Source: an uncultured bacterium (GTDB lineage: Bacteria > GCA-001730085). Taken from it: a DNA stretch of 32,000 nt. The DNA lies in NCBI GenBank assembly GCA_964565945.1, contig CAZMGY010000015.1, forward strand, positions 51,789 to 83,788, given 5' to 3'. Under the pieces are notes generated by a model. The model did not search any database and had not been told where the DNA came from. It saw only the letters and a program-made list of their open reading frames with translations. Numbering within the stretch: the first letter of the stretch is position 1; each line of letters starts with the position of its first letter. Of the stretch, positions 3,398 through 20,425 are shown in pieces. The position numbers were made by a program, and so were the translations under genes.

Positions 3398-3422
3398 AAA
3401 GTTGCCCCCCCTAAGCCACACG

Positions 3423-4127: not shown

Positions 4128-4136
4128 CACACTCTC

Positions 4137-4697: not shown

Positions 4698-4703
4698 CGA
4701 CGC

Positions 4704-6245
4704 TTAGGATCTCCTTTTATTGCTATTCATAACAATCGTAAAGCCAGTGTATTTCTGAGGAACCAAATTATAATTTCTTTGCGCAGTATCCTTCAATATC
4801 ACTGCGGGCAATTTTTTCCGATAATCTTTTAAATCTTCGATGGACTTTTTCACCTTATTGATCAAAAGAATATCTTCAACGGAATCTCCAGTGTAAACGG
4901 CGCCATGAAGCTCCAAGTTCTTTTTATTATTCCTATCTCTAAAAAAACGAAATTTCTCCACCCATATTTTCTCTTGCTCAACAAAAGGAGTTAGGATCTG
5001 ATTCATCAAATCTCCCATATAAATTCTACGATACTCAAAAGGTCGCAAGAATTTTTTTAGCAAAGCCACTTCTTTCTTTTGTTTTTTTAAATCATCCAAA
5101 CTTAAGTAACCTAATGACCCTATCTGCTCGGTCCTTTGTTTGATCTTTTTATCGAGTTTGCGACCTTTTAAGTAGAAATTCCCTAAAATTAAACCCAAAA
5201 TAATTGCCATCAAAACTCCACCACGCACAGCCATCAAACCTACAGGAAAGGGCTGAAACACTCTTCCACCCATCGCAGAGGTATCTTTAAGCAAATTCAC
5301 ATCAATACGAGGCCAAAAAATTTCGGCCAAAGCGGCTCCTAAACTAACACCATCTGTGGCTTCGATATCAAGGGCCTCAGAAAAATTAGCCCCACGAACA
5401 GACGCAGCAAAATTTTCTTCAAAAAAATCATCCCACTTGTACAAAGATATGCCATCTAACAGAATAACATTCTGAATAGGAACATTTGACAAAGCACTAT
5501 TAAAAAGCTTAACACTTAGAAAAACTTCATTAAAAAATTTTTCATCCACATCATTTTCCGAACTGACCACAGAAATGTCCCGTGCCACAACTGGAGATCC
5601 CTTATAGACAAGAAGCATATCGGCCAAGCAACGAATCCTCTCACGACCAAAAAACTTCTTTTTCACAGACATAATCAAGGTTGGTTGATCTTCGTCAATT
5701 AAATTGCTATGAAGACACGCCCTCACCATAGATAAAAACACAGAGCCAAGCTTGAAACACGAAATGCCTGCTAAGTTCAAGATAGAAATATAACGCGAGA
5801 TCGTGGCAGGTTTCGCGCAAACAAATAAGATATCCATTTCTTCAGTTTCTTCGTCGGGATTAAGAACCACAAAATCAATGCTAATTTCTTCAATGCGAAA
5901 AGGAACATACTTCTGCCCTTCAAAGCGAACAGCCTGAAACCACTCCTTTTTAGAATGTAGGCGAGGCATCGAAAAGGTTCTCACCACCACATCCTGAGTC
6001 GGTAAATTTAAAATAACATTGTTGCGAGGAATCTTGTTCTCGGTGAACAGATCTTCAAGAGCATTGCGAATAATTTCATTTTGGTCGACAACATCAATAT
6101 CTTGAATTGCAATCTTCCGCTGCACAACTTTTTCAATCACCGTGTTGCGCATATCTTTTTTGGCAATAGCAACTTCGACAAAATCTCGATTAATATAAAG
6201 ACCAACAAACTTCTTTGGTATCAAAAAGTTCAGGTCCATACCCAT
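4704..6245 (-). CDS. PilM-PilN fusion (MshI/GspL-like), module A, with degenerate nucleotide-binding motifs
   Basis: 513 aa. PilM-like NLPTQDVVVRTFSMPRLHSKKEWFQAVRFEGQKYVPFRIEEISIDFVVL; one TM helix GGVLMAIILGLILGNFYL; then a coiled-coil periplasmic tail. It has GLYINRDFVEV where the module B paralogue has GIDIGSDAIKLV. Confidence 0.65.
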   Translation of the reverse strand: MGMDLNFLIPKKFVGLYINRDFVEVAIAKKDMRNTVIEKVVQRKIAIQDIDVVDQNEIIRNALEDLFTENKIPRNNVILNLPTQDVVVRTFSMPRLHSKKEWFQAVRFEGQKYVPFRIEEISIDFVVLNPDEETEEMDILFVCAKPATISRYISILNLAGISCFKLGSVFLSMVRACLHSNLIDEDQPTLIMSVKKKFFGRERIRCLADMLLVYKGSPVVARDISVVSSENDVDEKFFNEVFLSVKLFNSALSNVPIQNVILLDGISLYKWDDFFEENFAASVRGANFSEALDIEATDGVSLGAALAEIFWPRIDVNLLKDTSAMGGRVFQPFPVGLMAVRGGVLMAIILGLILGNFYLKGRKLDKKIKQRTEQIGSLGYLSLDDLKKQKKEVALLKKFLRPFEYRRIYMGDLMNQILTPFVEQEKIWVEKFRFFRDRNNKKNLELHGAVYTGDSVEDILLINKVKKSIEDLKDYRKKLPAVILKDTAQRNYNLVPQKYTGFTIVMNSNKRRS

Positions 6246-6342: not shown

Positions 6343-8121
6343 TTAGAATAATTCCGTTTGGATCGAAAAGTGAACCTTAGAATCTTCAAATTTTCTATCT
6401 GCTTCATCGATAGGAAACCCTACTTCCAAACGTGCATACATGTTTTTATAGAGTTTAAAGCGCAAACCAACACCCACACTTTTGAACTCATCTCTTTGAA
6501 ATTCATTCAGTTGCTGCTCATTAGTATGACCAATACCATAATCCACAAATCCCATCAATTGTACACTTTCTTTCAAAGTACGATCGGCAAAAGGAATCTT
6601 AGCATTAGGAAACAATGGAGTTGGCGTATAAAGTTCCAAAGACACATGTCCACCAGTATCCCCACGGAAAGTACTTTCTTCAAATCCACGAACTGCATTA
6701 AAACCATTCAAAGAGATTTGCTCAGCCGTAACCAAGTTATCAGGAGAGTACTGCGCATTACCTTTAACTCTAACAAAGGTGAAGTCCCATGGCAACCTGT
6801 AAGAGTAGTCAAACGAAGCACGATATTTCTCAAAACCAGCCTCAGAACCTGTTCGAGAGAACTCGCGATGATCTTTGGCACCTGAGCCTAAGAAATCAGG
6901 AATACCCAAATCAACACCCACACGAGCCACCGCATGATCACGTGTTCCACGATGAACAAAATCAAACTCAGTCAAGAAAACCGTTATATCATCGTGAGCT
7001 GTTTGGGATCCAGGCGCACGCACTTTAGTGTCGGTAACACGCAATCCCAAACGTCCATTGATATCGGTTTTTTCACCACCCATAAGTTGACGCTGCAAGA
7101 AAACCATCGCGGTCTTAGATCTAGCCTCAATACCGAAGGGTTTATGCGTGCCTCCCACATCAACCTCAGAGTAGCTTGATACAATTCCCAGTTTTGTACG
7201 ATGATCATTAATAGGCACAAGGTACATGGTCGAAGCACCCCAAACACCCTTACCAACTATACCAGAAACAACAATCTGATCATCAAAACCAAACAGGTTG
7301 CTACGACGCCAATTCAATGAATAACGCTCTTTACCTGTAAGCTCGGTTCCCATGCGGTTGAAGCCAATGCTAATACTCGACAAGGAATCTTCCTCAACAT
7401 GCATAACAACATCCGAAAACCCTTTTTCTTCGCCTGGCTTCAAGCTCACAGAAACAGTTCGATCGGGATGACTGTTAAGCTCACGGACAATCCCCTTAAG
7501 CAAAGTGTAATCCAAAATTTCACCTTGAAGGCGCTTCTCGATATCTACCCTAAAGATGTTTTCACCAAAACGTTCGTTACCAACAACAATCACATCACCA
7601 ACTTTACCTTCCACAACAAGTATCTCAACATACCCTTCTGTGATATCTTGCTCGGGAATATAGGCATGTGATGTCACATAACCTTTATCGGCATAAAGGC
7701 CCGAAATCTCTTCGGCAATGCTATGTAACTGATCTAGCGTAAGTTCTTGCCCCTCATAACTCATAGTAATCGCCAAGACTTTTTCGTAATTGATAGACTC
7801 AACACCCGTTACAGAAATCTTATTAACCATAACTTTGTAGCCTTTATCAATAGGCGAGACTTCTTCTTCCATCACCATCTTTTCCGATACCTCAACACCC
7901 TCGCCTTCAAAGGCAACTTCGGGCTCATCGATTTCGGTTCCAGTATAGTCACTTTCGATAAATTCAATTGTTTGATCAATATCATCTGAAGCAATTGAAA
8001 TCTCTTGTCCACCCACTTCAAGATTATCCGCCATAGCGGATGTAACAAACGACATCATAATGCCCAACACAACAACGGAATATACGGCACGTCTCATCAT
8101 CAACAAACCCTTCCTTGACAT
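6343..8121 (-). CDS. Two-partner-secretion TpsB transporter (ShlB/FhaC/HecB family, POTRA + 16-strand barrel)
   Basis: Signal peptide MSRKGLLMMRRAVYSVVVLGIMMSFVTSAMA from ATG 8121. ShlB-type POTRA ISVTGVESINYEKVLAITMSYEGQELTLDQLHSIAEEISGLYADKGYVTSHAYIPEQDITEGYVEILVVEGKVG; LKPGEEKGFSDVVMHVEE; L6 motif NAVRGFEE. The track start at 8178 lies inside repeat copy 1. Confidence 0.85.
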   Translation of the reverse strand: MSRKGLLMMRRAVYSVVVLGIMMSFVTSAMADNLEVGGQEISIASDDIDQTIEFIESDYTGTEIDEPEVAFEGEGVEVSEKMVMEEEVSPIDKGYKVMVNKISVTGVESINYEKVLAITMSYEGQELTLDQLHSIAEEISGLYADKGYVTSHAYIPEQDITEGYVEILVVEGKVGDVIVVGNERFGENIFRVDIEKRLQGEILDYTLLKGIVRELNSHPDRTVSVSLKPGEEKGFSDVVMHVEEDSLSSISIGFNRMGTELTGKERYSLNWRRSNLFGFDDQIVVSGIVGKGVWGASTMYLVPINDHRTKLGIVSSYSEVDVGGTHKPFGIEARSKTAMVFLQRQLMGGEKTDINGRLGLRVTDTKVRAPGSQTAHDDITVFLTEFDFVHRGTRDHAVARVGVDLGIPDFLGSGAKDHREFSRTGSEAGFEKYRASFDYSYRLPWDFTFVRVKGNAQYSPDNLVTAEQISLNGFNAVRGFEESTFRGDTGGHVSLELYTPTPLFPNAKIPFADRTLKESVQLMGFVDYGIGHTNEQQLNEFQRDEFKSVGVGLRFKLYKNMYARLEVGFPIDEADRKFEDSKVHFSIQTELF

Positions 8122-8197
8122 ACTTTTTTTAAAGATTGACACACACACATAAAAACACCCTCTCGTTACGAAGTGCATTGTAGTTCACCTTTTTCAA

Positions 8198-8388: not shown

Positions 8389-8982
8389 CTAAGTAGCAAC
8401 AATCCACTCTCCTTGACTAAAAATAATACGTAACCATTTGTCTCTAACACGAATCACTCGCTCTTCTTTATTCTTATAACTTCGATGCCATTGACCATGG
8501 ACAAGATCTTGACGAGTACCTTCTATCAAATCAACTTTAGAATCAATAATTTGATCAAAATCATGGTCTAACTCCATAAAAACAGATTGACCCTTGTCAT
8601 TAAAATAAGTCATCCAAGAACGATCCATAAAACCATCATGATCATCATCTTTGCTACTTCGCGTGGTATGATTCGGAAAAAACTCCTCACGCAACTCCAC
8701 CTGACCATCAGCGTTGTTATCGTACTCTGTCATGAAGATATCACCCTTTTCATTATAATGTAAGAGAAGATCAACAACACCATCACGGTCACGATCAACA
8801 TCTTCCCTCACAACACGATGGCGTGCCACGTAAAGGGTTTTGTCAACAAGGCCATCGGCATCATAATCAAATGTTTTGATATACACATGCGACGAACACG
8901 CCGGCAGAGCCAGGGCTAAATAGATAAGGCCACTTATTCCTAAGCTAATCCTCAAATTAAGCGTCGCATTTCTCCAGTTCAA
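8389..8982 (-). CDS. Putative lipoprotein with four DxDxDG calcium-binding-like motifs
   Basis: Lipobox LALALPAC-SS. Motifs DYDADGLVD, DRDRDGVVD, DNNADGQVE and DDDHDGFMD occur at roughly 25-35 aa spacing. The track start at 8982 is a TTG overlapping purS by 26 nt. A TTG at 8955, 1 nt after the purS TAA, would give MRISLGISGLIYLALALPAC. Confidence 0.55.
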   Translation of the reverse strand: MNWRNATLNLRISLGISGLIYLALALPACSSHVYIKTFDYDADGLVDKTLYVARHRVVREDVDRDRDGVVDLLLHYNEKGDIFMTEYDNNADGQVELREEFFPNHTTRSSKDDDHDGFMDRSWMTYFNDKGQSVFMELDHDFDQIIDSKVDLIEGTRQDLVHGQWHRSYKNKEERVIRVRDKWLRIIFSQGEWIVAT

Positions 8983-9214
8983 GACGGTAGTCCTCTATGA
9001 CAGGATTAACCAATAACTTTTCACACATACCCTGTACCGCTTTGCGAACATCTTCTTCCGAACCATCTTGTTCAATTTTAAGATCCAAATACTTTCCAAC
9101 CCTCACATCTTCAACCTGTTGATAGCCTAAAGAGTCTAAGGCACGCTTAATAGTCATTCCTTGCGGATCCGCCACACTTTTTTTCAAATACACATAAATT
9201 TGAACACGGTACAC
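8957..9214 (-). CDS. purS: Phosphoribosylformylglycinamidine synthase subunit PurS
   Basis: 85 aa. YRVQIYVYLKKSVADPQGMTIKRALDSLGYQQVEDVRVGKYLDLKIE...MCEKLLVNPVIEDYRLE closely parallels Bacillus PurS. GTG start with GAGGAGG 8 nt upstream. Confidence 0.88.
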   Translation of the reverse strand: MYRVQIYVYLKKSVADPQGMTIKRALDSLGYQQVEDVRVGKYLDLKIEQDGSEEDVRKAVQGMCEKLLVNPVIEDYRLELEKCDA

Positions 9215-9232
9215 GGTTTTAACCTCCTCGCC

Positions 9233-10117
9233 TTAAGCTTTCAAACGATCAACAATTTCTTGATAGCCTTGCATGGTTTTGGCCATAATTTTCGATGGCA
9301 ATTCGGGTCCTGGTGGAGTTTTATCCCAATCCAACGTTTCCAAGTAATCACGAATAATTTGCTTATCAAAACTTTTATTGTCCTCACCAACAACATATTT
9401 ATCTACATCCCAAAAACGAGATGAATCTGGAGTGAGAACTTCATCAATTAAAATCACTTGATCGTCACAAAGACCAAACTCAAATTTAGTATCACACAAA
9501 ATAATTCCTCGCTCACGTGCATAATTGGAAGCTTTTTGATAAATCATTAGCGATTTTTGCTTAAGCTCTTCCGCAAGCTCTCGACCAACAATATCGACAA
9601 CACGCTCAAAAGAAATATTCTCATCGTGTCTTTCCATCGCCTTGGTCGACGGCGTAAACAAAGGTACTTCCAATTTTTGTGACTTTTGCAAACCCTCGGG
9701 AAGCACAATCCCACACACAGAACCATCACGCATATACTCTTTCCAACCTGATCCCGTAATATAACCACGAACAATGCACTCTATTTCCAAAAGCTTAGCT
9801 TTTTTCACCCACATCGAACGCCCCTCAAGCTGATCGCGATAGGCCTGCAAAAAATCTGGATATTCATCAACATTGTTCGAAATCAAATGATGCGGACAAT
9901 CACCTTCAAGTAAATTAAACCAAAACAGCGAACTATCGGTTAACACCTTACCTTTACCTGGTAAGCCGTTGGGCAAAACAACATCAAACGCCGAAATACG
10001 GTCGGTAGCCACAATCAAAAGACTATCATCCATGTCGTACACATCACGGACTTTTCCTCGATGAAACAGCTTCAGCTCAGGTATATGAGTCTCTGTAACA
10101 CATATTTGGGTCGACAT
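9233..10117 (-). CDS. purC: SAICAR synthetase PurC
   Basis: LFHRGKVRDVYDMDDSLLIVATDRISAFDVVLPNGLPGKGKVLT and ILCDTKFEFG motifs. I prefer ATG 10117 (MSTQI...) over the TTG at 10126. Confidence 0.93.
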   Translation of the reverse strand: MSTQICVTETHIPELKLFHRGKVRDVYDMDDSLLIVATDRISAFDVVLPNGLPGKGKVLTDSSLFWFNLLEGDCPHHLISNNVDEYPDFLQAYRDQLEGRSMWVKKAKLLEIECIVRGYITGSGWKEYMRDGSVCGIVLPEGLQKSQKLEVPLFTPSTKAMERHDENISFERVVDIVGRELAEELKQKSLMIYQKASNYARERGIILCDTKFEFGLCDDQVILIDEVLTPDSSRFWDVDKYVVGEDNKSFDKQIIRDYLETLDWDKTPPGPELPSKIMAKTMQGYQEIVDRLKA

Positions 10118-10138
10118 ACACCCCAACTCCCTCTAGGT

Positions 10139-11434
10139 CTAAACAAAAATTCTCTCGTAAATTTTATCTTCATTTCGCAACAAACGCTTCATGTCAAAGC
10201 ATTGGTTCACTTCATCTTCCGACAAGTATTCTCGAATAGAAGCATCATCCAACACCAAACGCTTTAAGGTAGCCCTCTCATTCGCCCACACATTCATAGC
10301 GGCACTCTGCACCATAGCATAAGCATCTTCACGGGTGATCCCCTTTTGAACCAGTGCCAACATAATGGTTTGCGAAAAAAACAAACCTCGCATGAGTGCC
10401 ATATTTTTATCCATGTTTTCCGGATAAGGCACCAATTTATCGAAAAGAGTGATCGCTTTGCCCAACATATAATCCAATGCAATCGTGCCATCAGGAATAA
10501 TCACACGCTCAACCGACGAATGAGAAATATCGCGCTCATGCCACAAAGGAACATTTTCTAAGGCCGCCACCGCGTATCCTCTTAAAAGACGTGCCAAACC
10601 AGATAAACGTTCCGAAATAATAGGGTTTCGTTTGTGCGGCATAGCCGAAGAACCTTTTTGTCCAACCGCAAAATACTCTTCAACCTCACGAATCTCTGTT
10701 TTTTGCAAGCCACGAACCTCCGTGGCAAATTTATCCAAAGAGCTCGCAATCACAGCCAACATGGACATATACTCAGCATGACGATCTCTCTGAATGATTT
10801 GCGTCGATACTAGAGCAATCTCTAAACCCAATTTGTCACAAACATATTCTTCAACACGGGGATCCATATTGGAAAAGGTTCCAACTGGACCAGAGATCAT
10901 CCCCACCCGAATCGCATCTTTCGCTCTCTGCATCCGCTCTATATTGCGACGGGTCTCTTCGTAGTACAAAGCCATTTTAAGGCCCAAGGTGGTTGGCTCA
11001 GCGTGAATTCCATGACTACGCCCCATCATCACCATACCTTTTAACTCAAGAGCACGTTTTTTGAAGACCTCAGCTAATTGCTCAAGTTTATCTAACAATA
11101 AATCACTGGCTTCAACCATACGTATTGACAAAGCCGTATCTAAAATATCCGAAGATGTCATCCCATAATGCACATATCGTGACTCGGGACCAATAAATTC
11201 GGCCATACTGGTTAAAAAGGCAATCACATCATGATGGGTTTTTGCTTCAATTTCACTGATACGATCCATATCAAAGTCGGCTTTTTCTTGAATCACCTTA
11301 ACCGCGTCCGCAGGAATAACACCCTGCTCCGCCCAAGCTTCACATACCAGAACTTCTATTTTGAGCCATTTTTGAAATTTGTTCTCTTCCGTCCAAATAC
11401 GTCCCATCTCGGGATTGCTATAACGTTCAATCAT
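10139..11434 (-). CDS. purB: Adenylosuccinate lyase PurB
   Basis: 431 aa. MIERYSNPEMGRIWTEENKFQKWLKIEVLVCEAW..., the fumarate-lyase signature GSSAMPHKRNP, and a typical length. Confidence 0.95.
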   Translation of the reverse strand: MIERYSNPEMGRIWTEENKFQKWLKIEVLVCEAWAEQGVIPADAVKVIQEKADFDMDRISEIEAKTHHDVIAFLTSMAEFIGPESRYVHYGMTSSDILDTALSIRMVEASDLLLDKLEQLAEVFKKRALELKGMVMMGRSHGIHAEPTTLGLKMALYYEETRRNIERMQRAKDAIRVGMISGPVGTFSNMDPRVEEYVCDKLGLEIALVSTQIIQRDRHAEYMSMLAVIASSLDKFATEVRGLQKTEIREVEEYFAVGQKGSSAMPHKRNPIISERLSGLARLLRGYAVAALENVPLWHERDISHSSVERVIIPDGTIALDYMLGKAITLFDKLVPYPENMDKNMALMRGLFFSQTIMLALVQKGITREDAYAMVQSAAMNVWANERATLKRLVLDDASIREYLSEDEVNQCFDMKRLLRNEDKIYERIFV

Positions 11435-11497
11435 ATATACGCCTATTCTTTATTGATGTATTTATATTCAGATCATTGCAACAATAGGTGCATTATA

Positions 11498-12580
11498 CTA
11501 TAAATCGATAATCTTGGCCGTGATAAAAATAATCAGGTTTGATTTCTGCTCAAAGGTGGTTTCAGTGCGAAAGAAATTTTTAATCAAAGGCATATCACCA
11601 AGCAAAGGCACCTTGCTCACTTCGTTCAACTTGGTACGTTTGACCAAGCCTCCCAAAACAACCGTTCCCCCATCCTTGATACTAACGGTGGTATCCGCTG
11701 AACGACGCACATACTTAGGCAAACGGATCGTTCCACTATCACCGAGATCCACAGACTCTAACGAAACAAGTTCAACAACGGTGGGATGCAGATCTAAAGT
11801 AATACTTTTCTCATCGGTACTAATGGTAGGTGTTACATCGAGCACAATACCCTCAACAGCCGTCTCAATATCGGCACTGCTTTCCACATTGGGATTGTCA
11901 TTGGTGAAAATCGTGGTTGTTGTGATCTTAGCCACATAATCCGTCGACTCTTCTATTTTGATATTGGCTCGCTGATTATTGAAACAGATAATTTTAGGCG
12001 AAGATAAGGTATTTACCTTTCCATCCTCCTCCAAAGCCTTTAAGGTTACATTCAATGAATTCTGACCACTTAACAAACCATAAGATAAATTCAGTTGATT
12101 CAATGAATTTAAGGCTACATCCCCCCAATTCCCCGACGGCAAATCAATGTTTCCACTAAACGTATGCTTGCCATTGCTATTCTTACGCTTCAAATTGGTC
12201 CAATCGACACCAATATCAAAACCTTCGAACGAATTAACTTCGATGATACGTGCTTCAATCAGAACTTGCTTAGGCTTATACTCCCTCACTTTGCTTATAA
12301 TATCCTGAACAACTTCCTGATTCTGAGGCGTATTTTTCACAAATAGCTTGCCCGTTTTCCGATGAAAAACAATACCAACTCCTTCTATGTCAAAATCAAC
12401 CATCTCTTTCAGTAAACCAACAATCGACTCACCTGTCACCATATAAGGCGAAGCGACCCCATCTTTGCTCACCAACTGCGATGCAATCGTTTTACTGCTA
12501 CGAATTTCTGCGGGCGCAGTAGCAAACAAAGGAACATGCATCACCCCCAAGCTAATTATCCACAAAGCCATTCTTTTCAT
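11498..12580 (-). CDS. Secretin core protein (signal peptide + N1-like + secretin domain, no N0), module B
   Basis: ATG 12580 with AGGAG 7 nt upstream gives MKRMALWIISLGVMHVPLFATAPA. N1-like GLLKEMVDFDIEGVGIVFHRKTGKLFVKNTPQNQEVVQDIISKV; VLIEARIIEV; GIVLDVTPTIS; VPLLGDMPLIKNFFRTETTFEQKSNLIIFITAKII. The track extension to 12718 overlaps the upstream gene and reads as non-protein-like. Confidence 0.85.
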   Translation of the reverse strand: MKRMALWIISLGVMHVPLFATAPAEIRSSKTIASQLVSKDGVASPYMVTGESIVGLLKEMVDFDIEGVGIVFHRKTGKLFVKNTPQNQEVVQDIISKVREYKPKQVLIEARIIEVNSFEGFDIGVDWTNLKRKNSNGKHTFSGNIDLPSGNWGDVALNSLNQLNLSYGLLSGQNSLNVTLKALEEDGKVNTLSSPKIICFNNQRANIKIEESTDYVAKITTTTIFTNDNPNVESSADIETAVEGIVLDVTPTISTDEKSITLDLHPTVVELVSLESVDLGDSGTIRLPKYVRRSADTTVSIKDGGTVVLGGLVKRTKLNEVSKVPLLGDMPLIKNFFRTETTFEQKSNLIIFITAKIIDL

Positions 12581-12590
12581 AACATCACTC

Positions 12591-14453
12591 CTATAGTATT
12601 GACGACTCACTATCCGAGGTCGGTCCCACCGATCCTTCACGGCGCGAGAATCCCGAACCCAGCTCTTCGGCAGGGAAGTCAAAAATCTTACCAATAATAT
12701 CTTGCACGTCATAGACAACTAAAATAATATCCTCTTTGCGAATCTTATTTTTGGTTGTAATCCAAATCAAATTGTCTTCAATCAAGTAATCAAAGTCGGT
12801 GAAACGCAAAACGGCCTCGATAATTTGAATCAAAGGCATATCCTTCACCTTAAACGTTATATTGCCCTGATTCAAAGCATCGGCCTCGATTTCTTTGGTG
12901 TCAATCACAATATTAAGCCCTGTCAACTCCGCCAACAAGTCAACTACCCCCTTAAGAGACGCGTCCTTAAAATTCAAAGTGTAGCGGGTTTCGAGTTTTT
13001 GCAAAATCACTTGTTTATCAGGAGAACTTTCTTTCATCGCCTTGGCAACTTTACGTCGGCTTCTTAGCGCCCAAGAAGGAGCACCCTCCTTAGCTGACGG
13101 AATCGCCGCCCGAGTCACATCCGCCAACAGCTCCTCTTCGGTCACATTCGCCAAACTATCCAAACGACTTTCCTGAGCTTTGGTGCTTTCAATGTCGGCC
13201 TGATCAATCAACGATTGAAGTTCTTCAGTGTACAAACCCGACACATCAAGCAACATAGCCTGCTTCCACACATAAAGAGCATCTTCGTATCGTTTGCGCA
13301 AACAAAGCTCTTTACCATCATTCAGAAAGGACTCAACACTCATATCTTCTGAGGTAGTAACAAAACCTTTGTTGATCATATCTGACTTAATCTCAACCAT
13401 ATCGCGACGAATATCGGCAGGCTCTCTCATTTTGGCCGCATTGGAACGCACCGCATCTTCACGCAACTTTTCCCGACGAACTTTCTCTTCTTGGATCTTA
13501 ATTTTAGAATCTTCGACATACTTTTGAATGACTTCATCATAAGGATTATAGGTCATCGCCATTGTGAAGCTCGAAAAAGCTCTCTCATAATCTTGCTGAG
13601 AAAAGTAGTCCAAACCCATTTTGAAATGATCTTTCGCCAACATAAGATCTTCTTTAGAAACAATATTAGCATAAACTTTGTCGCCCACAATATCCGATTT
13701 AGCTAGAGCTTCCTTGATTTTATTGATCTTGACCACATAACGATTGACATCTTTCTCATGCACATTGTGGTTGCGTGCCATGCGAAAAGAAGCCATGGCC
13801 TCGTCATAACGGTGTTGATTATACAACTCGAGCCCCTTGTCGAAGTAGCGTTCACCTATTTCTTTTTCAACCTTATCAGGGTTAGTATCAGGAGTCCAGC
13901 CATTAAACTTGGCCTTTTTCTTTTTTTCATAACGCAAATTTTTATATTTGCGCTGTTCATCTTCGGTCATTGTCTCGCGAATTTTGCGCCGCTGTTGCAA
14001 TTCGTTAATTTTCTCACGAGCTTTGTCCGACCATTTGCTCAGCTCCGAACCTTCCAGTAACAAACGATGCTTCCAATAATAAACAGCCTTATTAATATCT
14101 CCTTTGTTTTCGTAAAGATAAGCTAAATTGCTATAGGCGCCTTTGTAGCTATCATCTTTCTTGATGGCACGCAAATAAGACCGTTCCGCCGCCTCGTACA
14201 TACCCTTTTGCTCGTAAACAATCCCCAAATCATTGTGAGCTGTGGCATAAGCCACATCTTCATCAATTGCTTTTCTATAGTAGACAATCGCACTATCTAA
14301 ATCGCCTTGCTGTTGATGGCGATAACCTTCCAAACGATACTCCAACGCTTTTTTAGACGCATAGACCGACTGTTGAGCCCCGACAAGGCCAGGACTTAGA
14401 CCTAGATACATTAAGCCCAACACAACAAGACACCCTCTACGAATGACACTCAT
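12591..14453 (-). CDS. Secreted TPR protein (about 6 TPRs) with a C-terminal secretin-type N0/STN-like domain, module B
   Basis: Signal peptide MSVIRRGCLVVLGLMYLGLSPGLVGA. TPRs such as AYATAHNDLGIVYEQKGMYEAAERSYLRAIKKDDSYKGAYSNLAYLYENKGD. The C-terminal YTLNFKDASLKGVVDLLAELTGLNIVIDTKE...ITFKVKDMPLIQIIEAVLRFTDFDYLIEDNLIWITTK (about 12744-12989) matches the N0 pattern also seen in secretin A. ATGA overlap with the upstream gene; stops 10 nt before the secretin start. Confidence 0.75.
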   Translation of the reverse strand: MSVIRRGCLVVLGLMYLGLSPGLVGAQQSVYASKKALEYRLEGYRHQQQGDLDSAIVYYRKAIDEDVAYATAHNDLGIVYEQKGMYEAAERSYLRAIKKDDSYKGAYSNLAYLYENKGDINKAVYYWKHRLLLEGSELSKWSDKAREKINELQQRRKIRETMTEDEQRKYKNLRYEKKKKAKFNGWTPDTNPDKVEKEIGERYFDKGLELYNQHRYDEAMASFRMARNHNVHEKDVNRYVVKINKIKEALAKSDIVGDKVYANIVSKEDLMLAKDHFKMGLDYFSQQDYERAFSSFTMAMTYNPYDEVIQKYVEDSKIKIQEEKVRREKLREDAVRSNAAKMREPADIRRDMVEIKSDMINKGFVTTSEDMSVESFLNDGKELCLRKRYEDALYVWKQAMLLDVSGLYTEELQSLIDQADIESTKAQESRLDSLANVTEEELLADVTRAAIPSAKEGAPSWALRSRRKVAKAMKESSPDKQVILQKLETRYTLNFKDASLKGVVDLLAELTGLNIVIDTKEIEADALNQGNITFKVKDMPLIQIIEAVLRFTDFDYLIEDNLIWITTKNKIRKEDIILVVYDVQDIIGKIFDFPAEELGSGFSRREGSVGPTSDSESSIL

Positions 14454-15193
14454 TCTTGCTCATCCCCCTTTTTGACCAAAACCGACACACCGCCTTTGTG
14501 CAGGGTCACGCCATCATTGGCGATGGATCGAACATCCCACCCTTCAGTAAAATCTCCTTCTCGTATAACAAAGGTTTTTCCACTCTCTTTGTTATATATT
14601 TTGGCATGAATTCCCTCTTCTAAAGCCACTTTATCTTTTTCGAGACGCAATATGGAATCCCGCCCCTCTCGACGAACATCGACATGATACGGTGTTGCCT
14701 CCACAATTTCGTACCGCATTATCCTATCACCTTTTTTCAAAAATGACGTCCCTTTCTTCGAGTTAAACTGAACATAGAGCTTTTTATCATCTTTTTTAGA
14801 AAAAGTTCCCATCCAAACAAAAGGAACCTCATGGCGAATTACCTTAAGCAGCACATAGGGGTTCACCACAATCTCATCCACCTTAACATCCACTTCAAAA
14901 GGGTGAAAGATATCACGCGTCAAAAATTCCTCATAATATGAAAACTTTTTCAAAAGATGCATCAAACCCACATAGTTCATTTTTTTCATTTTTCGCCTAA
15001 GAGGCCCTAGCTTCTGTCCCTTAATGTTAATTTTACGCACCACTAAGTCAACCTCCGACTGAGCTGACCTTTGAGACATCTTGGGCACAAAAACAGTCGT
15101 AGCATAGCCTCCAACCAAAAGCACAAGTCCCCACAATACAACATATTCCATGCGATTTCGCACATATGCGGCTATTCGATCTAATCCATTCAT
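14450..15193 (-). CDS. PilP/GspC-like bitopic protein, module B
   Basis: 247 aa with an N-terminal TM helix (YVVLWGLVLLVGGYATTVFV). Two beta-rich segments of the PilP/GspC pattern (LKKGDRIMRYEIVEATPYHVDV...; REGDFTEGWDVRSIANDGVTLHKGG). ATGA overlaps on both sides. The call rests on pattern and position. Confidence 0.4.
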   Translation of the reverse strand: MNGLDRIAAYVRNRMEYVVLWGLVLLVGGYATTVFVPKMSQRSAQSEVDLVVRKINIKGQKLGPLRRKMKKMNYVGLMHLLKKFSYYEEFLTRDIFHPFEVDVKVDEIVVNPYVLLKVIRHEVPFVWMGTFSKKDDKKLYVQFNSKKGTSFLKKGDRIMRYEIVEATPYHVDVRREGRDSILRLEKDKVALEEGIHAKIYNKESGKTFVIREGDFTEGWDVRSIANDGVTLHKGGVSVLVKKGDEQE

Positions 15194-15915
15194 ACGTGCG
15201 GAATCTCCACATAGGTTAACTTTAGAACAATATCCAACTCATAATTAGGACGTGCCTCGATTCGGATCGCATCGGCCACAACCAGCTGAGACATAGATGA
15301 AATATCGTACAACAAACGATACAATTGATCGGATCTTGTCCTTAAGGTAATCATAATAGGATATTGTTTAAGCATTGTTTGACGATATTCTACTAACTCT
15401 TCTTTTGGCAAACGACTAATTTCTTTAACGGTTTGAATGCGATTTTTCGCACAAAGCTCCAAAACAGCCTCAATCAAAGCCAAATATCGTTTCAAATCAA
15501 CTAAATGTTGCTCCATCGGAATCTTGGTTGCATAATCAGAAAAACCTATATCTTTGCGCTCAAAACGCGCCCTTTTTTCTGCCACTAAACCCCGAAACTC
15601 TAGCGGCCTCACAACCTCTTTAAACGCCTGCGAAAAATCCTCTTGGTTATGCAAAACCTGACTAATTCGCTCATGCTGACTTTTCAAATATTCACGATGC
15701 CGCTTAAGCGTATTAATCTCCTCTGGTGTAGGGATCTTGTGTGCATCACGTAAATAGCTTATCAACAAGCCCCTTTTTTGTTGATAAGCATTATGCAAAA
15801 CTCTTTTTTGATTCCATTGAAACATCGTCAACAAAGCCCCCACAGCTAAGGATCCAACGACAAGGATCAAAGCACGTGTAACACGGCGGTCTTGAAAAAC
15901 ATCAACAAACATCAT
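15190..15915 (-). CDS. PilO/GspM-like bitopic protein, module B
   Basis: 241 aa with TM helix ALILVVGSLAVGALLTMF, then a coiled coil and a C-terminal alpha/beta part (YPIMITLRTRSDQLYRLLYDIS). ATGA overlaps on both sides. Confidence 0.45.
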   Translation of the reverse strand: MMFVDVFQDRRVTRALILVVGSLAVGALLTMFQWNQKRVLHNAYQQKRGLLISYLRDAHKIPTPEEINTLKRHREYLKSQHERISQVLHNQEDFSQAFKEVVRPLEFRGLVAEKRARFERKDIGFSDYATKIPMEQHLVDLKRYLALIEAVLELCAKNRIQTVKEISRLPKEELVEYRQTMLKQYPIMITLRTRSDQLYRLLYDISSMSQLVVADAIRIEARPNYELDIVLKLTYVEIPHV

Positions 15916-17591
15916 GATTCTTTTATTTTTACTTTCATTGTGTACATAATTTTCGTTCGCTCATCCTTCACACCTTCTTTGGCATAATCCACCGAAACAG
16001 TGCTCACATAAGAGTAACTTTCCATAGCAATTTTAAGCCCATCCACTTTTTTATAAGAATCACTCGTAACCCCCTTAATAAATAAATCATTGGGCCGAAG
16101 CAAAAATGTTTCGTCCTTTTGAGGTTTCAACCTGTGCTGACGAACTTTTTGCTCATCAAAACGTTTTTGGCGCAAGTCGCGCAAGATTTGCATCTCCTGA
16201 GCAGTAAAACCATAATGAAACATCGAATAAAACATATCGTTGATCGTCACTTTTTTAATATCCAAAAGCCAATCTAAAAGGCGGCTACGTTCACGTGACA
16301 CTTTGGCAAAAGCCCTTAACTGTGTTTCGAGCGGTGCAATTTCATTAGAAATCTTAACAATCGTTTTCTCCATTTGGCGAAAAGCATTGGACTCTTTTTG
16401 TGCCAATACCGTTTGTGTTCTTAGCTCAACAAGCTTGGCTTGACCCTGATTCAAATAAAGCCCCCAAAAACAGCTAATCAGAACAGCCCACATAACCATC
16501 ACCAGACTAACACGTCGATAATAACGGTCTTTTTGAACACCGTGAGGCAGAAGGTTCACTTGCACGGGGCATAAGGAAACATGTCGTAATGCCAAACCTG
16601 TAGCAATAGCAAAAAAGTACCTCATATTTTGAGCCTGATCGTGCCCTACATCGGAAGCAATATCAACTCTCTGAAAAGGGTCGAGCAACTCAACTTCGGC
16701 ATCAAAACGGTTCGCAAACAAATCGACCGCACCCAAAATACGCATATTACCACCAGTGAGATAAAGTTTTTGCAAAACAAATGCCGACTCCAAAGAAATG
16801 TAATGCTGCAACGTTTTTTTAATTTCTCCAACCACCTCTTCCAAGCCTTCCTCGAGCATTTGACTGCGTTGAAAGTCGCTCCCTTCGCCTTGCAAACCGA
16901 CAGAATGCTTAAACTGTATCGCTGGTCCTTCTCCTGTCCCCATTCTTTCGGCTAATAACTGCGTCAAATGTTTACCCGCAACAGGAATAGTCCGCGTCCA
17001 AAAACCTTTATCGTCGACAATCAATAAAGTCGTTTGCTGCTCCCCAATATCGACCACCATCGAACCAACAGGAATCTGATTGTAAGAGGCCAAATTATAA
17101 AGCGCCATCGAAGGCACATCTAAGGTTTGAATATGAATCTGGGTCGAATCGATATTGTTAGTGAACTCATAAACAACAGGTTCTTTGATGGCGTGAAGCA
17201 CCACATATGCTTGAGCCGTACTACGATCGGAGCCAATCAAATGATAATCCCAACTGACATCCTCAAGAGGAAAGGGAATTTGTTGACGCGCTTCAAAATG
17301 AACAATCTGATCCACTTTGTCCGCAGTCACTGGTGGCAATTCAATGTACTTGGAATAAATATCCCCCGCAGGCAAAGAAATGATCGCCTGCGCTTTTTTA
17401 ATATCGTTTTGAGCCAAAACCCAGCGCAAAGCTTCAGCCTCGCGATCTTTGGGCGACATATCTTCAAAAACAGGAATATCCCGATAAGGCAAATAGGCAG
17501 CTTTTTTAAGCACAAGACTTCGTCTTGTTTTTTTAAACTCAACCAGCTTTATTGCATCCGAACCGATATCAATACCGATAAACGACGCCAT
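15912..17591 (-). CDS. PilM-PilN fusion (MshI/GspL-like), module B, canonical actin-fold ATP motifs
   Basis: ATG 17591 gives MASFIGIDIGSDAIKLVEF. Also SLPAGDIYSKYIELPPVTADKVDQIVHFEARQQIPFPLEDV, VVDIGEQQTTLLIV and YLTGGNMRILG. TM helix VSLVMVMWAVLISCFWGLYL, then a coiled-coil PilN-like tail. The track start at 17654 lies upstream of the predicted promoter. Confidence 0.75.
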   Translation of the reverse strand: MASFIGIDIGSDAIKLVEFKKTRRSLVLKKAAYLPYRDIPVFEDMSPKDREAEALRWVLAQNDIKKAQAIISLPAGDIYSKYIELPPVTADKVDQIVHFEARQQIPFPLEDVSWDYHLIGSDRSTAQAYVVLHAIKEPVVYEFTNNIDSTQIHIQTLDVPSMALYNLASYNQIPVGSMVVDIGEQQTTLLIVDDKGFWTRTIPVAGKHLTQLLAERMGTGEGPAIQFKHSVGLQGEGSDFQRSQMLEEGLEEVVGEIKKTLQHYISLESAFVLQKLYLTGGNMRILGAVDLFANRFDAEVELLDPFQRVDIASDVGHDQAQNMRYFFAIATGLALRHVSLCPVQVNLLPHGVQKDRYYRRVSLVMVMWAVLISCFWGLYLNQGQAKLVELRTQTVLAQKESNAFRQMEKTIVKISNEIAPLETQLRAFAKVSRERSRLLDWLLDIKKVTINDMFYSMFHYGFTAQEMQILRDLRQKRFDEQKVRQHRLKPQKDETFLLRPNDLFIKGVTSDSYKKVDGLKIAMESYSYVSTVSVDYAKEGVKDERTKIMYTMKVKIKES

Positions 17592-17644
17592 TCCTATCCC
17601 CTTAACACACACCCAGCCCAAAGACACACTATAGATATAGTATG

Positions 17645-17673
17645 ATTCTTCCACAACACTCTGAACCTGTCAA
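17645..17673 (-). promoter_or_regulatory. Candidate sigma70-type promoter for module B
   Basis: Minus strand: TTGACA (17673-17668), 17-nt spacer, AAGAAT (17650-17645). Lies about 55 nt upstream of ATG 17591. Confidence 0.45.
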
Positions 17674-17705
17674 GAGAACTCTCGATTTAAACAAGCCTAC
17701 CAACC

Positions 17706-17990
17706 TTAAGCCACTCTTAGAAGTACCTGTTCTTTAAAAACACCTGCACCCACCAAGGAAATCATCACGCCTTGGACAAGATCTAACAATTCTGGGACCT
17801 GCGTTTGATTTTGTAATGCCCGAAGCAATTCAACATATGTTTTAAACCTCTTATCACCCCCAAGATTAACATAACGTTCTGTTTTTTCAATCTAACCTGG
17901 AACCACATCAGGAAAAATTTTCATCAACAGAGCCAAGTTGCTCAGCTCCAAGTTAACTACTTTATCCTCTCCATCATGTCTTTTTCCATT
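17706..17990 (-). pseudogene. Unidentified coding remnant with an in-frame TAG (17892-17894)
   Basis: My translation: NGKRHDGEDKVVNLELSNLALLMKIFPDVVPG*IEKTERYVNLGGDKRFKTYVELLRALQNQTQVPELLDLVQGVMISLVGAGVFKEQVLLRVA*. It reads as protein-like but has no start codon and is interrupted. I do not recognise the family. Confidence 0.3.
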
Positions 17991-18058
17991 TTAAAGAGCT
18001 AATTTTCTTCTTTCAAGCGACGAAGCTCCAGGTGTTCTTCTGTTAGCTTGCCATTATC
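17957..18058 (-). mobile_element. Possible relic of an IS3-family OrfA C-terminus (leucine-zipper region)
   Basis: My translation: DNGKLTEEHLELRRLKEEN*LFKMEKDMMERIK*. It resembles the IS3 OrfA pattern LTxExxExxxLxKENxxLxMExDILKKA. Broken by stops, with no transposase catalytic ORF and no inverted repeats identified. Confidence 0.25.
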
Positions 18059-18154
18059 GCGATGGTCAGAACAGTCGTAGTATTCTGACTACTGTCTTCC
18101 TCTTTATTGTTTTTGCATTGTGTGCCAGTTTTTTGGGGCGTATCGTTTGAAACA

Positions 18155-18196
18155 GGTATGTTGGTGTGGGCTCAGTATTCATTACACCAACATACC
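18155..18196. repeat. Perfect 13-bp inverted repeat with a 16-nt loop
   Basis: GGTATGTTGGTGT (18155-18167) ... ACACCAACATACC (18184-18196). Lies 10 nt downstream of the broken lipoprotein gene. Confidence 0.85.
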
Positions 18197-18205
18197 TAAA
18201 AAAGC

Positions 18206-18685
18206 TTAGTTTGAACTACGAATGAATAGTGCGTTCTCAATTCTCTCAAACGCATTCTCATACAGTTTTACATCAAGAAGCACAATATCCTGTCTGTTGG
18301 TTTGACCCAACTCCCATGAAGTCTTCTTGACCTCAACGAAGCTCAATCGTACTTTCGTTTTATCTCCGATTTGTTCAACAAACGCTGTCATTTTTGTCTG
18401 AGTAATTTTGATTGCGACACCTGACCACAACAAAAACGTAGAATCACTGTTAGCGGAACTTTCTGCTAAGATTAGACCAGCTTAAATGTCAGCGTTGCTG
18501 ATTGTGTACCCAATGTCTTGCAATACAGAAATCACGCTTGGGAAAACGACTCCCTTGGTTGATTCAAATTCACGACTTTGAAGACTTCGAATCTCAAGCG
18601 AATTCATCGTTGATTTTGGATTTGTCATGCAAGCAGACAGAACCAAAGTGGCAAGCATCACAACCAGTATGTTTTTGATTTTCAA
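18206..18685 (-). pseudogene. Small lipoprotein gene interrupted by one in-frame TAA (18482-18484)
   Basis: Track ORFs 18482-18685 and 18206-18433 are in the same frame (offset 252 nt). Read-through gives MKIKNILVVMLATLVLSAC...GYTISNADI*AGLILAESSANSDSTFLLWSGVAIKITQTK...; lipobox LVLSAC. Confidence 0.6.
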
Positions 18686-18694
18686 TGTGTTCTC

Positions 18695-19109
18695 CTAAAA
18701 GTTTGATGCGCGACTGTTGAAGTCTGAGAGAACATCGTTGCTATCAAATTTGATAATCAGAGTAATCATCCTTAATAAGAACCCAAACCCAGAGTTACTG
18801 CCTGAGTGACCTGCAAATAGGATCGTCCAATAACCTGTTTTTGAAGATGCCTGAGCAACTTGGGCACTTCTTTGGTAAGTCCAAACTTCCCTACCACTTC
18901 CATCTCTTGAGGTTGGGAGACCCGAAACTTTCCAAAACTTGTACTTTGGTAGTAGTGCCAACTTGCATTGAAAGTTGCACGTTGCCTTGGGTTAACTGGG
19001 AATTTCTGTCGGTCAATGGTTGGGGCGTTGACATATAACCTGACAATAAAAGACCAAATACGAATAAGACCGAAAACAAATTAGATAATGACTCCATGAC
19101 GCAACTCAC
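18695..19109 (-). pseudogene. Small secreted protein gene broken by a frameshift near 18900-18925
   Basis: ORF 18891-19109 (...LTQGNVQLSMQVGTTTKVQVLESFGSPNL) and ORF 18695-18961 (...TSRDGSGREVWTYQRS...TLIIKFDSNDVLSDF) overlap in frames offset by 1. Joined, they read as one protein of about 135 aa with the N-terminal hydrophobic helix MESLSNLFSVLFVFGLLLSG. Confidence 0.5.
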
Positions 19110-19557
19110 TTTAGCATAATTTCGAAACTAGATATATCTGCCCTTGGCTTCATTTAAAATTCCCTCGAAAATCGATCAGCGAATAAAATGGCAAATTGAT
19201 TCAAGGCTTTGTTCTAATCCCGTATCGGTAAAGTTCCTTTTGACCCTCCATATTTACGCCTAGAACCAGGCAAACAGCTTTGTTGCACACATGTGATTTA
19301 TTAGCAAAAATTATTTTTTATTACGTATATAATAGAAAATTAGAAACACACTGGCCAAAGGGCGCTCCTGCCCCTTCTTGCAAGCCAAGTCTCTTCTTTT
19401 AAAATACGTTTAAAACTATAGCACCTCTGAACTTCCAGATAATGCCGTCAACCTTTTCATCTATTTTTATAAGGAGTGCGAATAACGTTCTAATCACAGG
19501 GATCCTAAGAGTTAGTTAATCCAATTAAGCCAATGAATTAGAAAGATTTAATTACTC

Positions 19558-20424
19558 TTAGTCTAGAAAAGCCCCTAATTTATTAATAATTAGCCGAGTA
19601 TGACCTCTAATATTTTTGGCCTGCGTCAGCTCAGAAATCATAGCAATCCTTTGCACCCCAGCCACAATAAGGGTTTCGAAATGTTCTTGATGAATCCCCC
19701 CCATCACGGTCAAAGGTATCTTGGCTGTAGCTTGAGCTTGAAGGAACAACTCCAGACCAACTGGTTTCACCGAAGTTTCTTTCGTCTGCGTCACGAACAA
19801 AGGACCAATATTGGCATAGCTTGTCCCATCTTGTTCAGCCTGCACAAGATCCTCTATCGAATGACACGAAATACCAATAATTTTATCAGGCCCCAGCAAT
19901 CGACGCGCCTCTCGACACGGAATGTCATTCTGTCCCAAATGCACGCCATCCGCATCCACCGCCATAGCCACATCAATGTAATCATTGATAATCAACAGAG
20001 CACCTTTATCCCGCGTAAGACTTCTTAAGGTCTGAGCCACAGAAAAAATGGTTCGGCGAGAGGCTTTTTTGTTGCGATACTGAACAACCTGCACACCACC
20101 TTCAAGCAAGTCTTCGACAACTTGAATATCCGAGCGTCCGCAAGATAATTCTTCGCAAGTGACTGGATACAAACGAATATTTTTAAACCGTTCCTCCAAA
20201 GATAACGTGGATATAGGATCCGCCCCTCCTCCCATAAAGACAATCACTTCAATCACATCATTTTCCACAAGAACATGTGTGGCATAATCTTTGGGATCAA
20301 TAATCTCTAAATTTTTCTCAACCACATAGTGCTTTGACTTAAGAGATAAACGCGTCAATACCTCAGCCAGAGACAATCCCTCCTCGCAAGCATAAACCTC
20401 TCCATTCAGTTGAATTGAAATCAT
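19558..20424 (-). CDS. thiE: ThiS-ThiE fusion: sulfur-carrier ThiS (aa 1-67, ending GGG) fused in frame to thiamine-phosphate synthase
   Basis: ATG 20424 lies 1 nt after the thiH TGA. MISIQLNGEVYACEEGLSLAEVL...VENDVIEVIVFMGGG parallels Bacillus ThiS. It continues with no stop into ADPISTLS...VQVVQYRNKK...LLIINDYIDVAMAVDADGVHLGQND...IIGISCH...GPLFVTQTK...PLTVMGGI..., which is ThiE. Confidence 0.85.
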   Translation of the reverse strand: MISIQLNGEVYACEEGLSLAEVLTRLSLKSKHYVVEKNLEIIDPKDYATHVLVENDVIEVIVFMGGGADPISTLSLEERFKNIRLYPVTCEELSCGRSDIQVVEDLLEGGVQVVQYRNKKASRRTIFSVAQTLRSLTRDKGALLIINDYIDVAMAVDADGVHLGQNDIPCREARRLLGPDKIIGISCHSIEDLVQAEQDGTSYANIGPLFVTQTKETSVKPVGLELFLQAQATAKIPLTVMGGIHQEHFETLIVAGVQRIAMISELTQAKNIRGHTRLIINKLGAFLD

Positions 20425-20425
20425 A

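Follow-up and report, generated by a model that had tools for sequence, protein, structure and literature searches.

Secretins have been studied as single chains that reach the inner-membrane platform through their N0 domain, and on which tetratricopeptide repeat (TPR) pilotins act from outside. A stretch of 32,000 nucleotides (nt) from an uncultured bacterium (contig CAZMGY010000015.1 of assembly GCA_964565945.1, positions 51,789 to 83,788; hereafter the window) raises the question of whether one secretin can be divided between two genes. Two adjacent genes on its minus strand encode a 620-amino-acid (aa) secreted protein with TPRs and a C-terminal N0-like domain (the TPR-N0 protein, or partner) and a 360-aa short secretin. 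The original prediction, made from the sequence alone, was that a TPR protein supplies the connector between pore and inner membrane in trans. We find N0 on a separate gene, by sequence profile and by predicted fold; the docking itself we infer. We assign a probability of roughly 0.6 to the combined statement that an ancient and conserved gene fission separated the two halves and that the TPR-N0 protein is re-attached in trans by strand donation.

Two adjacent genes in the window and in its relatives

The TAG stop of the TPR-N0 gene (12593-12591) and the ATG of the secretin gene (12580) are separated by 10 nt, and the two genes lie in different frames. The 360-aa protein starts with MKRMALWIISLGVMHVPLFA. 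As had been read from the sequence, this second gene has its own AGGAG ribosome-binding site and its own signal peptide.

We assessed whether the division could be an artifact. The junction DNA is identical to the window at 181 of 181 positions in two independent Logan assemblies (SRR12008135 and SRR12008138), both of which contain identical 620-aa and 360-aa genes with the same spacer. The closest genome match, L001, is an unclassified bacterium of the Planctomycetes-Verrucomicrobia-Chlamydiae (PVC) group from the bryozoan Bugula neritina, with a secretin that is 69% identical. In L001 a 615-aa TPR-N0 gene is followed by a 357-aa secretin gene in the same frame, with two in-frame stops, a 33-nt spacer and an unrelated signal peptide. 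Because the frame and the spacer differ between the window and L001, no frameshift site is conserved.

A sequencing or assembly frameshift, or a recent pseudogene in a decaying symbiont genome, would fit the resemblance of 17.7-19.5 kb of the window to gene debris and the 138-nt overlap of the two reading frames. We consider this explanation highly improbable given the identical junction, the two stops and different spacer of L001, and the persistence of the split in the clade down to 35% identity with a good signal peptide on every downstream gene. Assembly error and pseudogene formation are refuted by the two assemblies, the L001 junction and the eleven contexts described below. The overlap involves a 406-aa open reading frame (ORF) that begins at TTG 12718 and runs over the last part of the upstream gene; L001 lacks an equivalent ORF, in keeping with the earlier view that the overlapping upstream frame reads as junk. 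Still less probable is programmed frameshifting or readthrough that produces a single fused chain. The secretin frame is open upstream to 12718 in the window, but the frame relation, stops and spacer are not shared with L001, there is no conserved slippery site, and a fused product would carry a hydrophobic signal peptide buried inside a periplasmic domain.

A gene encoding TPRs and an STN domain stands directly before the short secretin in 11 of 11 contexts (the window, L001, the P0009 contig, L005-L010, and the contigs of P0001/P0007 and P0122/P0014), down to 35% identity, and the spacers, frames and signal peptides differ among them. The short-secretin family comprises approximately 33 clusters of 348-413 aa that extend down to 34% identity. 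With respect to clade labels, one member is assigned to Candidatus Omnitrophica and one genome to an unclassified PVC-group bacterium. An exhaustive profile search recovered at least 14 partner proteins (50% clustering) of 211-615 aa, with a single N0 match that reaches the C-terminus; a word-indexed search with the partner C-terminus had yielded 1 relative and then 9, and was replaced by this one. The identical junction in two assemblies and the same two-gene order in every context indicate that the split is genuine and not an artifact, so the original view that no sequencing frameshift is involved stands. A conserved gene fission is well supported, and the distribution shows that the arrangement has been retained by selection across the whole clade. 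L002, another locus returned by the genome scan, turned out to be a GspC-GspD-GspE locus of the ordinary one-piece kind and was set aside.

All short secretins of the family begin with a hydrophobic leader of their own, and these leaders are unrelated. Both proteins of the window have a hydrophobic leader and neither has a lipobox. The TPR-N0 leader ends in ...SPGLVGA/QQ without a Cys at +1, as is also the case in L001 and P0122, and this absence of a lipobox Cys indicates that the TPR-N0 protein is not a lipoprotein. A PilF-type lipoprotein pilotin identity was ruled out for the same reason.

The number of secretin genes per locus varies. The window, L001, the P0009 contig and L005 have a single short secretin. 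Tandem second secretins are found in L006 (9226-10464), L007 (7053-8072), L008 (6179-7333), L009 (6155-7327) and L010 (3820-5004), of which L008 is the locus with the secretin labeled Candidatus Omnitrophica. The second copies in L006 and L007, when translated, have their own leader and N-terminal features like those of their neighbor. The tandem genes suggest hetero-oligomeric or stacked pores, or a 1:2 ratio of partner to pore.

The N0 domain and the point of breakage

The original description of the upstream product as a secreted TPR protein with charged linkers is borne out by its leader and by a Pfam TPR match (E=3e-19, five stretches). After the main TPR block there are additional TPR-like helical pairs and charged linkers, to about residue 470. 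The same Pfam searches gave strong TPR and Secretin matches for the pair, and STN and Secretin_N matches below their curated cut-offs. Residues 493-567 of the TPR-N0 protein matched STN (E=1e-3), GspD_N0 (E=7e-3) and FecR_C (E=2e-2), all sub-threshold; relatives of the protein have STN matches better than E=1e-5.

Profiles were more informative than the single sequence. A family profile of the C-terminus, compared with the Protein Data Bank (PDB), matched the N0 domains of PilQ from Vibrio cholerae (6w6m, E=1.1e-14) and Neisseria meningitidis (4ar0, E=1.1e-12), as well as PilQ from Pseudomonas aeruginosa (6ve2, E=5e-12) and Myxococcus xanthus (3jc8, E=1.6e-5) and the STN domain of PupA (2a02, E=3e-3). 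An AlphaFold2 (AF2) model of residues 470-620, built from 19 aligned sequences, has alternating strands and helices (four helices and five strands) over residues 478-574, with a predicted local distance difference test score (pLDDT) of 91-95. A Foldseek search with this model placed the N0 domains of PilQ, GspD and XcpQ in the top ranks (4ar0, 4av2, 6w6m, 3jc8 and 4jtm), with E=2e-5 for 4ar0 and a template modeling score of 0.71, normalized on the target, for 4jtm. Profile and predicted fold together confirm the reading of the C-terminal domain as a true secretin N0, as originally placed on the TPR protein. As for the proposed likeness to the N0 of secretin A, a second secretin encoded in the window (3436-1385), the direct BLASTP match is weak on its own (E=0.09).

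We then compared the pair with relatives in which the parts are joined. Both forms occur among relatives: the two-gene form in the 11 contexts above, and the fused form in P0036 and P0038, in MshL and in Amuc_1098. P0036 (588 aa) and P0038 (581 aa), together with the fragments P0040 and P0042, represent a one-piece type ordered as a TPR-like region, N0, ETRVYYLSKGGGLFTEFSP, a Gly/Ser loop, TIEDTLKEIV... and the pore. This order is shared by MshL proteins, in which the loop is Ser-rich (P0041). Partner and secretin joined head to tail are collinear with the one-piece relatives, with no overlap (alignment A4). In profile-profile comparisons with hhalign, the partner profile matched fused-family columns 2-111 (probability 98%, E=2.6e-13), a match that spans N0 and continues through VVYDVQDIIGKIFDFPA, which corresponds to TRVYYLSKGGGLFTEFSP. 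The profile of the mature short-secretin N-terminus matched columns 134-206 (98.4%, E=9e-15), from the first helix onward. Since nothing but the Gly/Ser loop separates the two matches, the break falls after the first N1-type strand and not at the N0/N1 border. The alignments thus show, at the level of sequence, an ancestral gene broken within the Gly/Ser-rich insertion loop that follows this strand, with the downstream half having gained its own ribosome-binding site and signal peptide.

These comparisons also refine what each product contains. The short secretin has the pore of the secretin superfamily (PF00263), and N0 is not on the same chain as that pore. The N1-type domain before the pore is modeled as helix-strand-strand-helix (pLDDT 72-86) with a weak Secretin_N match (E=0.047), and its first strand aligns to the other protein. 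The earlier description of the second gene as an N1-like domain plus barrel therefore stands for the barrel; the N1 is incomplete, with its first strand on the TPR protein. The Gly/Ser/acidic tail of the TPR-N0 protein (residues 595-620) is unconserved and has pLDDT <50 in both AF2 models. It is what is left of the insertion loop where the ancestral gene was interrupted.

The distant L007 lineage has the same cut. Its partner ends in ...EELITRTYRLQHGVRRTREVSLMEF, shortly beyond a canonical first strand, LITRTYRLQHG, and its mature secretin starts with QETITIKDYLEMAL, approximately five residues before the first helix. In a neighbor-joining tree of the pore region, which is crude and has no support values, the main short-secretin family forms one clade with MshL as its sister, and the fused P0036 type and the L007 short type fall outside. 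This placement would need at least two fission or fusion events, and is suggestive of at least two such events at the same loop.

Proposed docking of the two halves

The strand and motif IILVVYDVQDIIGKIFDFP (consensus VYDVQDLxGKxxDFP) are the best conserved part of 17 partner proteins, with a mean column conservation of 0.79; N0 reaches 0.58 and the tail 0.26. When AF2 models the partner by itself, the strand and motif have no structure (pLDDT <50), although the adjoining N0 exceeds 90. We modeled a chimera in which partner residues 477-620 were joined to the mature secretin as one chain with the natural linker of ~60 residues. MAFFT repeatedly misplaced the partner fragments (alignments A3, A6 and A7), so a shallower alignment, A8, was used, with 26 rows that include four one-piece relatives and 21 short secretins. 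In the chimera the strand and motif form a strand (chimera residues 101-106) in a block with pLDDT ~78; the N1 elements (helix 174-184, strands 193-197 and 202-207, helix 209-223) have pLDDT 72-86 and N0 has 55-64. The chimera matched V. cholerae PilQ (6w6m) over 482 columns (Foldseek E=4e-22). As the strand is ordered only when the secretin N1-type domain is present, the model suggests that it completes or extends that sheet in trans. Given that relatives keep the split, the N0 connector most likely docks onto the pore as a separate protein.

The mechanism that we propose starts from one ancestral TPR-N0-N1-pore secretin, of the type of Amuc_1098 'PilQ' and P0036/P0038, or of MshL without TPRs, which split into two genes. 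Both products would be exported separately by Sec, and the short secretin would form the outer-membrane pore. Each pore subunit would then recapture one TPR-N0 protein, with the IILVVYDVQDIIGKIFDFP strand and motif inserting into, or adding onto, the sheet of the truncated N1-type domain, a strand complementation in trans. This would rebuild the periplasmic N0 ring and place a TPR ring beneath the pore. The rebuilt N0 ring may contact an inner-membrane component of the PilP/GspC type, as in one-piece secretins; contact of N0 with the inner-membrane component is established for PilQ-PilP and GspD-GspC. A broader proposal, which we advance tentatively and think less likely to hold in full, is that throughout the clade the secretin of the pilus or secretion machine is divided within a folded domain, which intermolecular strand complementation then restores, and that the N0/TPR ring is detachable: it could join pores, leave them or be shared between them, including tandem pairs.

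Several points weigh against strand donation, or against the domain assignments behind it. In single-sequence Pfam searches, STN (PF07660) scored 19.0 bits against a cut-off of 28.4 and GspD_N0 (PF21305) 16.6 against 27, and the Secretin_N match of the short secretin (residues 52-98, E=0.047) is below the curated cut-off. The chimera is a single chain and not a multimer prediction, with a mean pLDDT of 62.5 from a 26-row alignment, and which strands pair in it was not seen directly. A8 has no cover for the first 24 mature residues of the secretin (TIASQLV...PYMVTGE), so the model is biased against that segment. These residues might themselves provide the strand that is missing, and in one MAFFT alignment (A7) they were placed against the fused linker. 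Five loci have two tandem short secretins per TPR-STN gene, for which a simple 1:1 model has no explanation. Binding of the TPR-N0 protein to the secretin is a prediction.

An alternative that we regard as unlikely is nonetheless the strongest competitor of strand donation. The short secretin would be complete, with its own N-terminal segment as the first N1 strand, and the TPR-N0 protein would be a separate accessory (a non-lipoprotein pilotin, an aligner or a peptidoglycan tether) that would take part in assembly or connect to the inner membrane and would donate no strand. Short secretins do share a conserved start of the mature chain, TAPAEIRSSKTIASQLVSKDGVASPYMV: across 20 sequences with the pattern ETIxxQxV...PYxVTGE, Q15 is invariant, P25, Y26, T29, G30 and E31 are almost invariant, and the AF2 model has a weak, low-confidence strand at this point. 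Secretins without N0 exist, in Tad systems and as RhcC2 (Abby and Rocha, PMC3459982), TPR proteins that act in trans on secretins are well known (PilF/PilW/TadD; PMC4311626, PMC10499894), and the five loci with two tandem secretins per partner gene also fit an accessory role. However, hhalign aligned the secretin N-terminal segment to no counterpart in the fused family, and specifically not to the first-strand region; the strand and motif are the most conserved element of the partner and are ordered by AF2 only with the secretin; and the mature secretin of the L007 type starts almost at the helix. Under strand donation, the conserved mature N-terminus TAPAEIRSSKTIASQLVSKDGVASPYMV may touch the partner at a second site or add a strand of its own.

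The locus and its relation to known secretins

The TPR-N0 protein and the short secretin are the final genes of a five-gene cluster on the minus strand, after a PilM/PilN-like fusion, a 241-aa protein and a 247-aa protein (Table 1). The PilM/PilN-like gene is first in the cluster at all related loci, where there are PilN matches; in the window its true start is probably an ATG ~21 codons inside the listed GTG ORF. The 241-aa protein, in the PilO position, has no Pfam match and no PDB sequence match. The gene in this position has an Amuc_1100 match in L005 and L009 and a weak one in L007 and L010, and the same gene bears a weak Amuc_1100 mark in L011. The 247-aa protein, in the PilP position, has no Pfam family above threshold and no PDB sequence match; from its position it is a candidate for the inner-membrane-side partner of N0. 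The cluster belongs to a type IV pilus or type II secretion-like machine of a PVC-group bacterium. No ATPase or pilin genes adjoin it in the window, and L005 has T2SSF and pseudopilin genes upstream. An Rfam scan of the whole window gave no match.

Table 1. Coordinates of the split secretin and its gene cluster in the window
Feature	Coordinates	Strand	Basis
360-aa short secretin, C-terminal half of split secretin	11498..12580	-	ORF, Pfam, model
Secretin pore domain, aa 182-359	11504..12037	-	Pfam PF00263 E=1.4e-39
Rest of N1-type domain, predicted helix-strand-strand-helix, aa 50-99	12284..12433	-	AF2 chimera, hhalign, weak Pfam
Conserved mature N-terminus TAPAEIRSSKTIASQLVSKDGVASPYMV, aa 21-48	12437..12520	-	20-sequence conservation
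Signal peptide of short secretin, aa 1-20	12521..12580	-	Read from sequence
AGGAG ribosome-binding site of secretin gene	12588..12592	-	Overlaps upstream TAG stop, 7 nt before ATG
620-aa secreted TPR-N0 protein, N-terminal half of split secretin	12591..14453	-	ORF, Pfam, profile, fold
Low-complexity Gly/Ser/acidic C-terminal tail, aa 595-620	12594..12671	-	Faces Gly/Ser loop of fused relatives, A11 columns 112-133
Putative donor strand and motif IILVVYDVQDIIGKIFDFP, aa 576-594	12672..12728	-	Equals first strand of N1-type domain in one-piece relatives
N0 (STN-type) domain, aa 490-574	12732..12986	-	Profile vs PDB, AF2, Foldseek
Main TPR block, aa 42-129	14067..14330	-	Pfam TPR_1/TPR_2 E~3e-19, 5 stretches
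Signal peptide of TPR-N0 protein, aa 1-26, ...GLVGA/QQ	14376..14453	-	Read from sequence
247-aa protein, PilP position	14450..15193	-	BLASTP E=3e-4 to same-position gene of L005
241-aa protein, PilO position, weak Amuc_1100-family member	15190..15915	-	Position and weak Amuc_1100 match in relatives
PilM-like ATPase-fold protein with C-terminal PilN-like extension (MshI-like fusion)	15912..17654	-	Pfam PilM_2 E=5.5e-41

Immediately after the short secretin come purB (adenylosuccinate lyase) and purC, both in the window (8957-11434) and in L001 (7334-9599), which indicates that the secretin is the last gene of the cluster and that local synteny is conserved; purS then follows in the window. A paralogous cluster on the minus strand (1385-6245) encodes a PilM-like protein (513 aa), a protein of 186 aa, one of 235 aa that has weak T2SSB/T2SSC matches, and the 683-aa secretin A. 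The latter combines STN/N0, Secretin_N/N1 and the Secretin pore on one chain, and at least three TPRs are fused at its C-terminus. L001 has a similar PilM-like gene close to its own pair (11067-12602). With TPRs at the C-terminus of secretin A and on the separate TPR-N0 protein, one genome links TPRs to two secretins in different ways, and joining a TPR module covalently, or almost so, to a secretin seems to be customary in this lineage.

Just upstream of the secretin A cluster is a ShlB/FhaC-type two-partner-secretion transporter (POTRA_2 and ShlB; 6343-8178, minus strand), with no obvious TpsA cargo gene in the window. Positions 17700-19550 (~1.9 kb) contain short broken ORFs of 40-88 aa, including a lipoprotein-like start at 18685-18482, and gave no Pfam or Rfam match; the region looks like gene debris, which fits a host-associated decaying genome. 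ThiS and thiamine-phosphate synthase (TMP-TENI) lie in one 310-aa ORF (19558-20490, minus strand) and are separate genes of 66 and 213 aa on the P0009 contig; the 310-aa ORF is either a gene fusion or has a mis-set start. The window ends within the gene of a type I restriction enzyme R subunit, of which it contains the C-terminal part (30837-31997, minus strand).

We compared the pair with known secretin systems. The 'PilQ' protein of Akkermansia muciniphila, Amuc_1098, has 907 aa, with TPRs at 71-239 and a secretin domain at 650-876 (PMC4960237). Like the pair it comes from the PVC superphylum and has N-terminal TPRs and a C-terminal secretin domain, and its length is close to the summed length of the pair (620+340 mature residues). 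The Amuc_1098-1102 cluster also resembles this locus in the presence of a PilM-like gene (PilM_2 E=5.5e-41) and, in related loci, of an Amuc_1100-family gene upstream. Compared by published domain map, Amuc_1098 is a single chain, whereas here a stop codon and a 10-nt spacer separate two genes, the second with a signal peptide of its own.

MshL of the mannose-sensitive hemagglutinin (MSHA) pilus (Aeromonas and others) is among the closest one-piece relatives of the short secretin, at 31-34% identity, and the fused P0036 type scores similarly. As in the pair, N0 precedes an N1-type domain in MshL, and a Ser-rich insertion sets the first strand of that domain apart from the remainder (P0041). 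MshL proteins are single chains of 520-576 aa that match Pfam Secretin_N_2 (PF07655), whereas the short secretin has 360 aa and PF07655 was not detected in it. In the msh operon mshI encodes a PilM-PilN fusion. The cluster described here likewise starts with a PilM-PilN fusion, followed by two small genes (the msh order is mshI-J-K-L-M-N); no MshM-like ATPase gene was found in the window. MshN, the TPR protein of the MSHA system, is separate, and to our knowledge it does not carry N0.

The only precedent of a split secretin that we found is RhcC1/RhcC2 of the rhizobial-type type III secretion system, in which the N-terminal piece was proposed as a linker to the inner-membrane ring, with RhcC1 thought to have been kept in that role when a Tad-type secretin took the place of the pore half (PMC3574062, PMC3459982). 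RhcC1/RhcC2 resemble the pair in that the N-terminal periplasmic domains and the pore are on separate proteins. They differ in belonging to a type III system, in that their genes are not adjacent, and in originating by partial gene replacement and not by fission. RhcC2 derives from a Tad secretin with a BON domain, RhcC1 has no TPR region, and no split domain shared between the two is reported. A scan of the window found no match to type III secretion genes or a BON domain, and the context here is of the PilM/N type. Text searches of open-access papers, including ones aimed at such secretins in Omnitrophota or Verrucomicrobia, returned no account of the present split.

As TPR proteins needed in trans for secretin assembly or stability, PilF, PilW, Tgl and TadD offer a comparison for the TPR-N0 protein. 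They are small outer-membrane lipoproteins without N0, whereas the TPR-N0 protein has 620 aa, has no lipobox and carries part of a secretin. Planctomycete and other PVC multi-STN proteins have the same STN module with the VY(D/P)VQDL strand, a Gly-rich insertion and helix-strand-strand-helix (P0129). Unlike in the pair, the whole unit is on one chain, often repeated up to eight times. The N0 and VYDVQDL module was detected in 10,734 proteins at E<1e-3, often as 3-8 tandem copies in proteins of 1,000-2,500 aa. The multi-STN proteins (matches P0130-P0278) are presumably of the kind found in planctomycete and other PVC genomes, and we know of no described function for them.

In the conserved natural split, N0 and the TPRs are on another chain than the pore, the cut falls inside a domain, and a highly conserved putative donor strand remains. 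This arrangement is a ready system in which to ask what role N0 has in gating and assembly, and whether an N0 ring can join after the pore has been inserted. If strand donation is true, a detachable N0/TPR module would be a natural means of regulating the coupling between an outer-membrane pore and an inner-membrane machine. For annotation, short "N0-less" secretins beside "TPR hypothetical proteins" in PVC-group and Omnitrophica-labeled genomes and related metagenome contigs would be one functional unit, and the relationship ties this locus to the medically relevant Amuc_1098-1102 cluster of Akkermansia.

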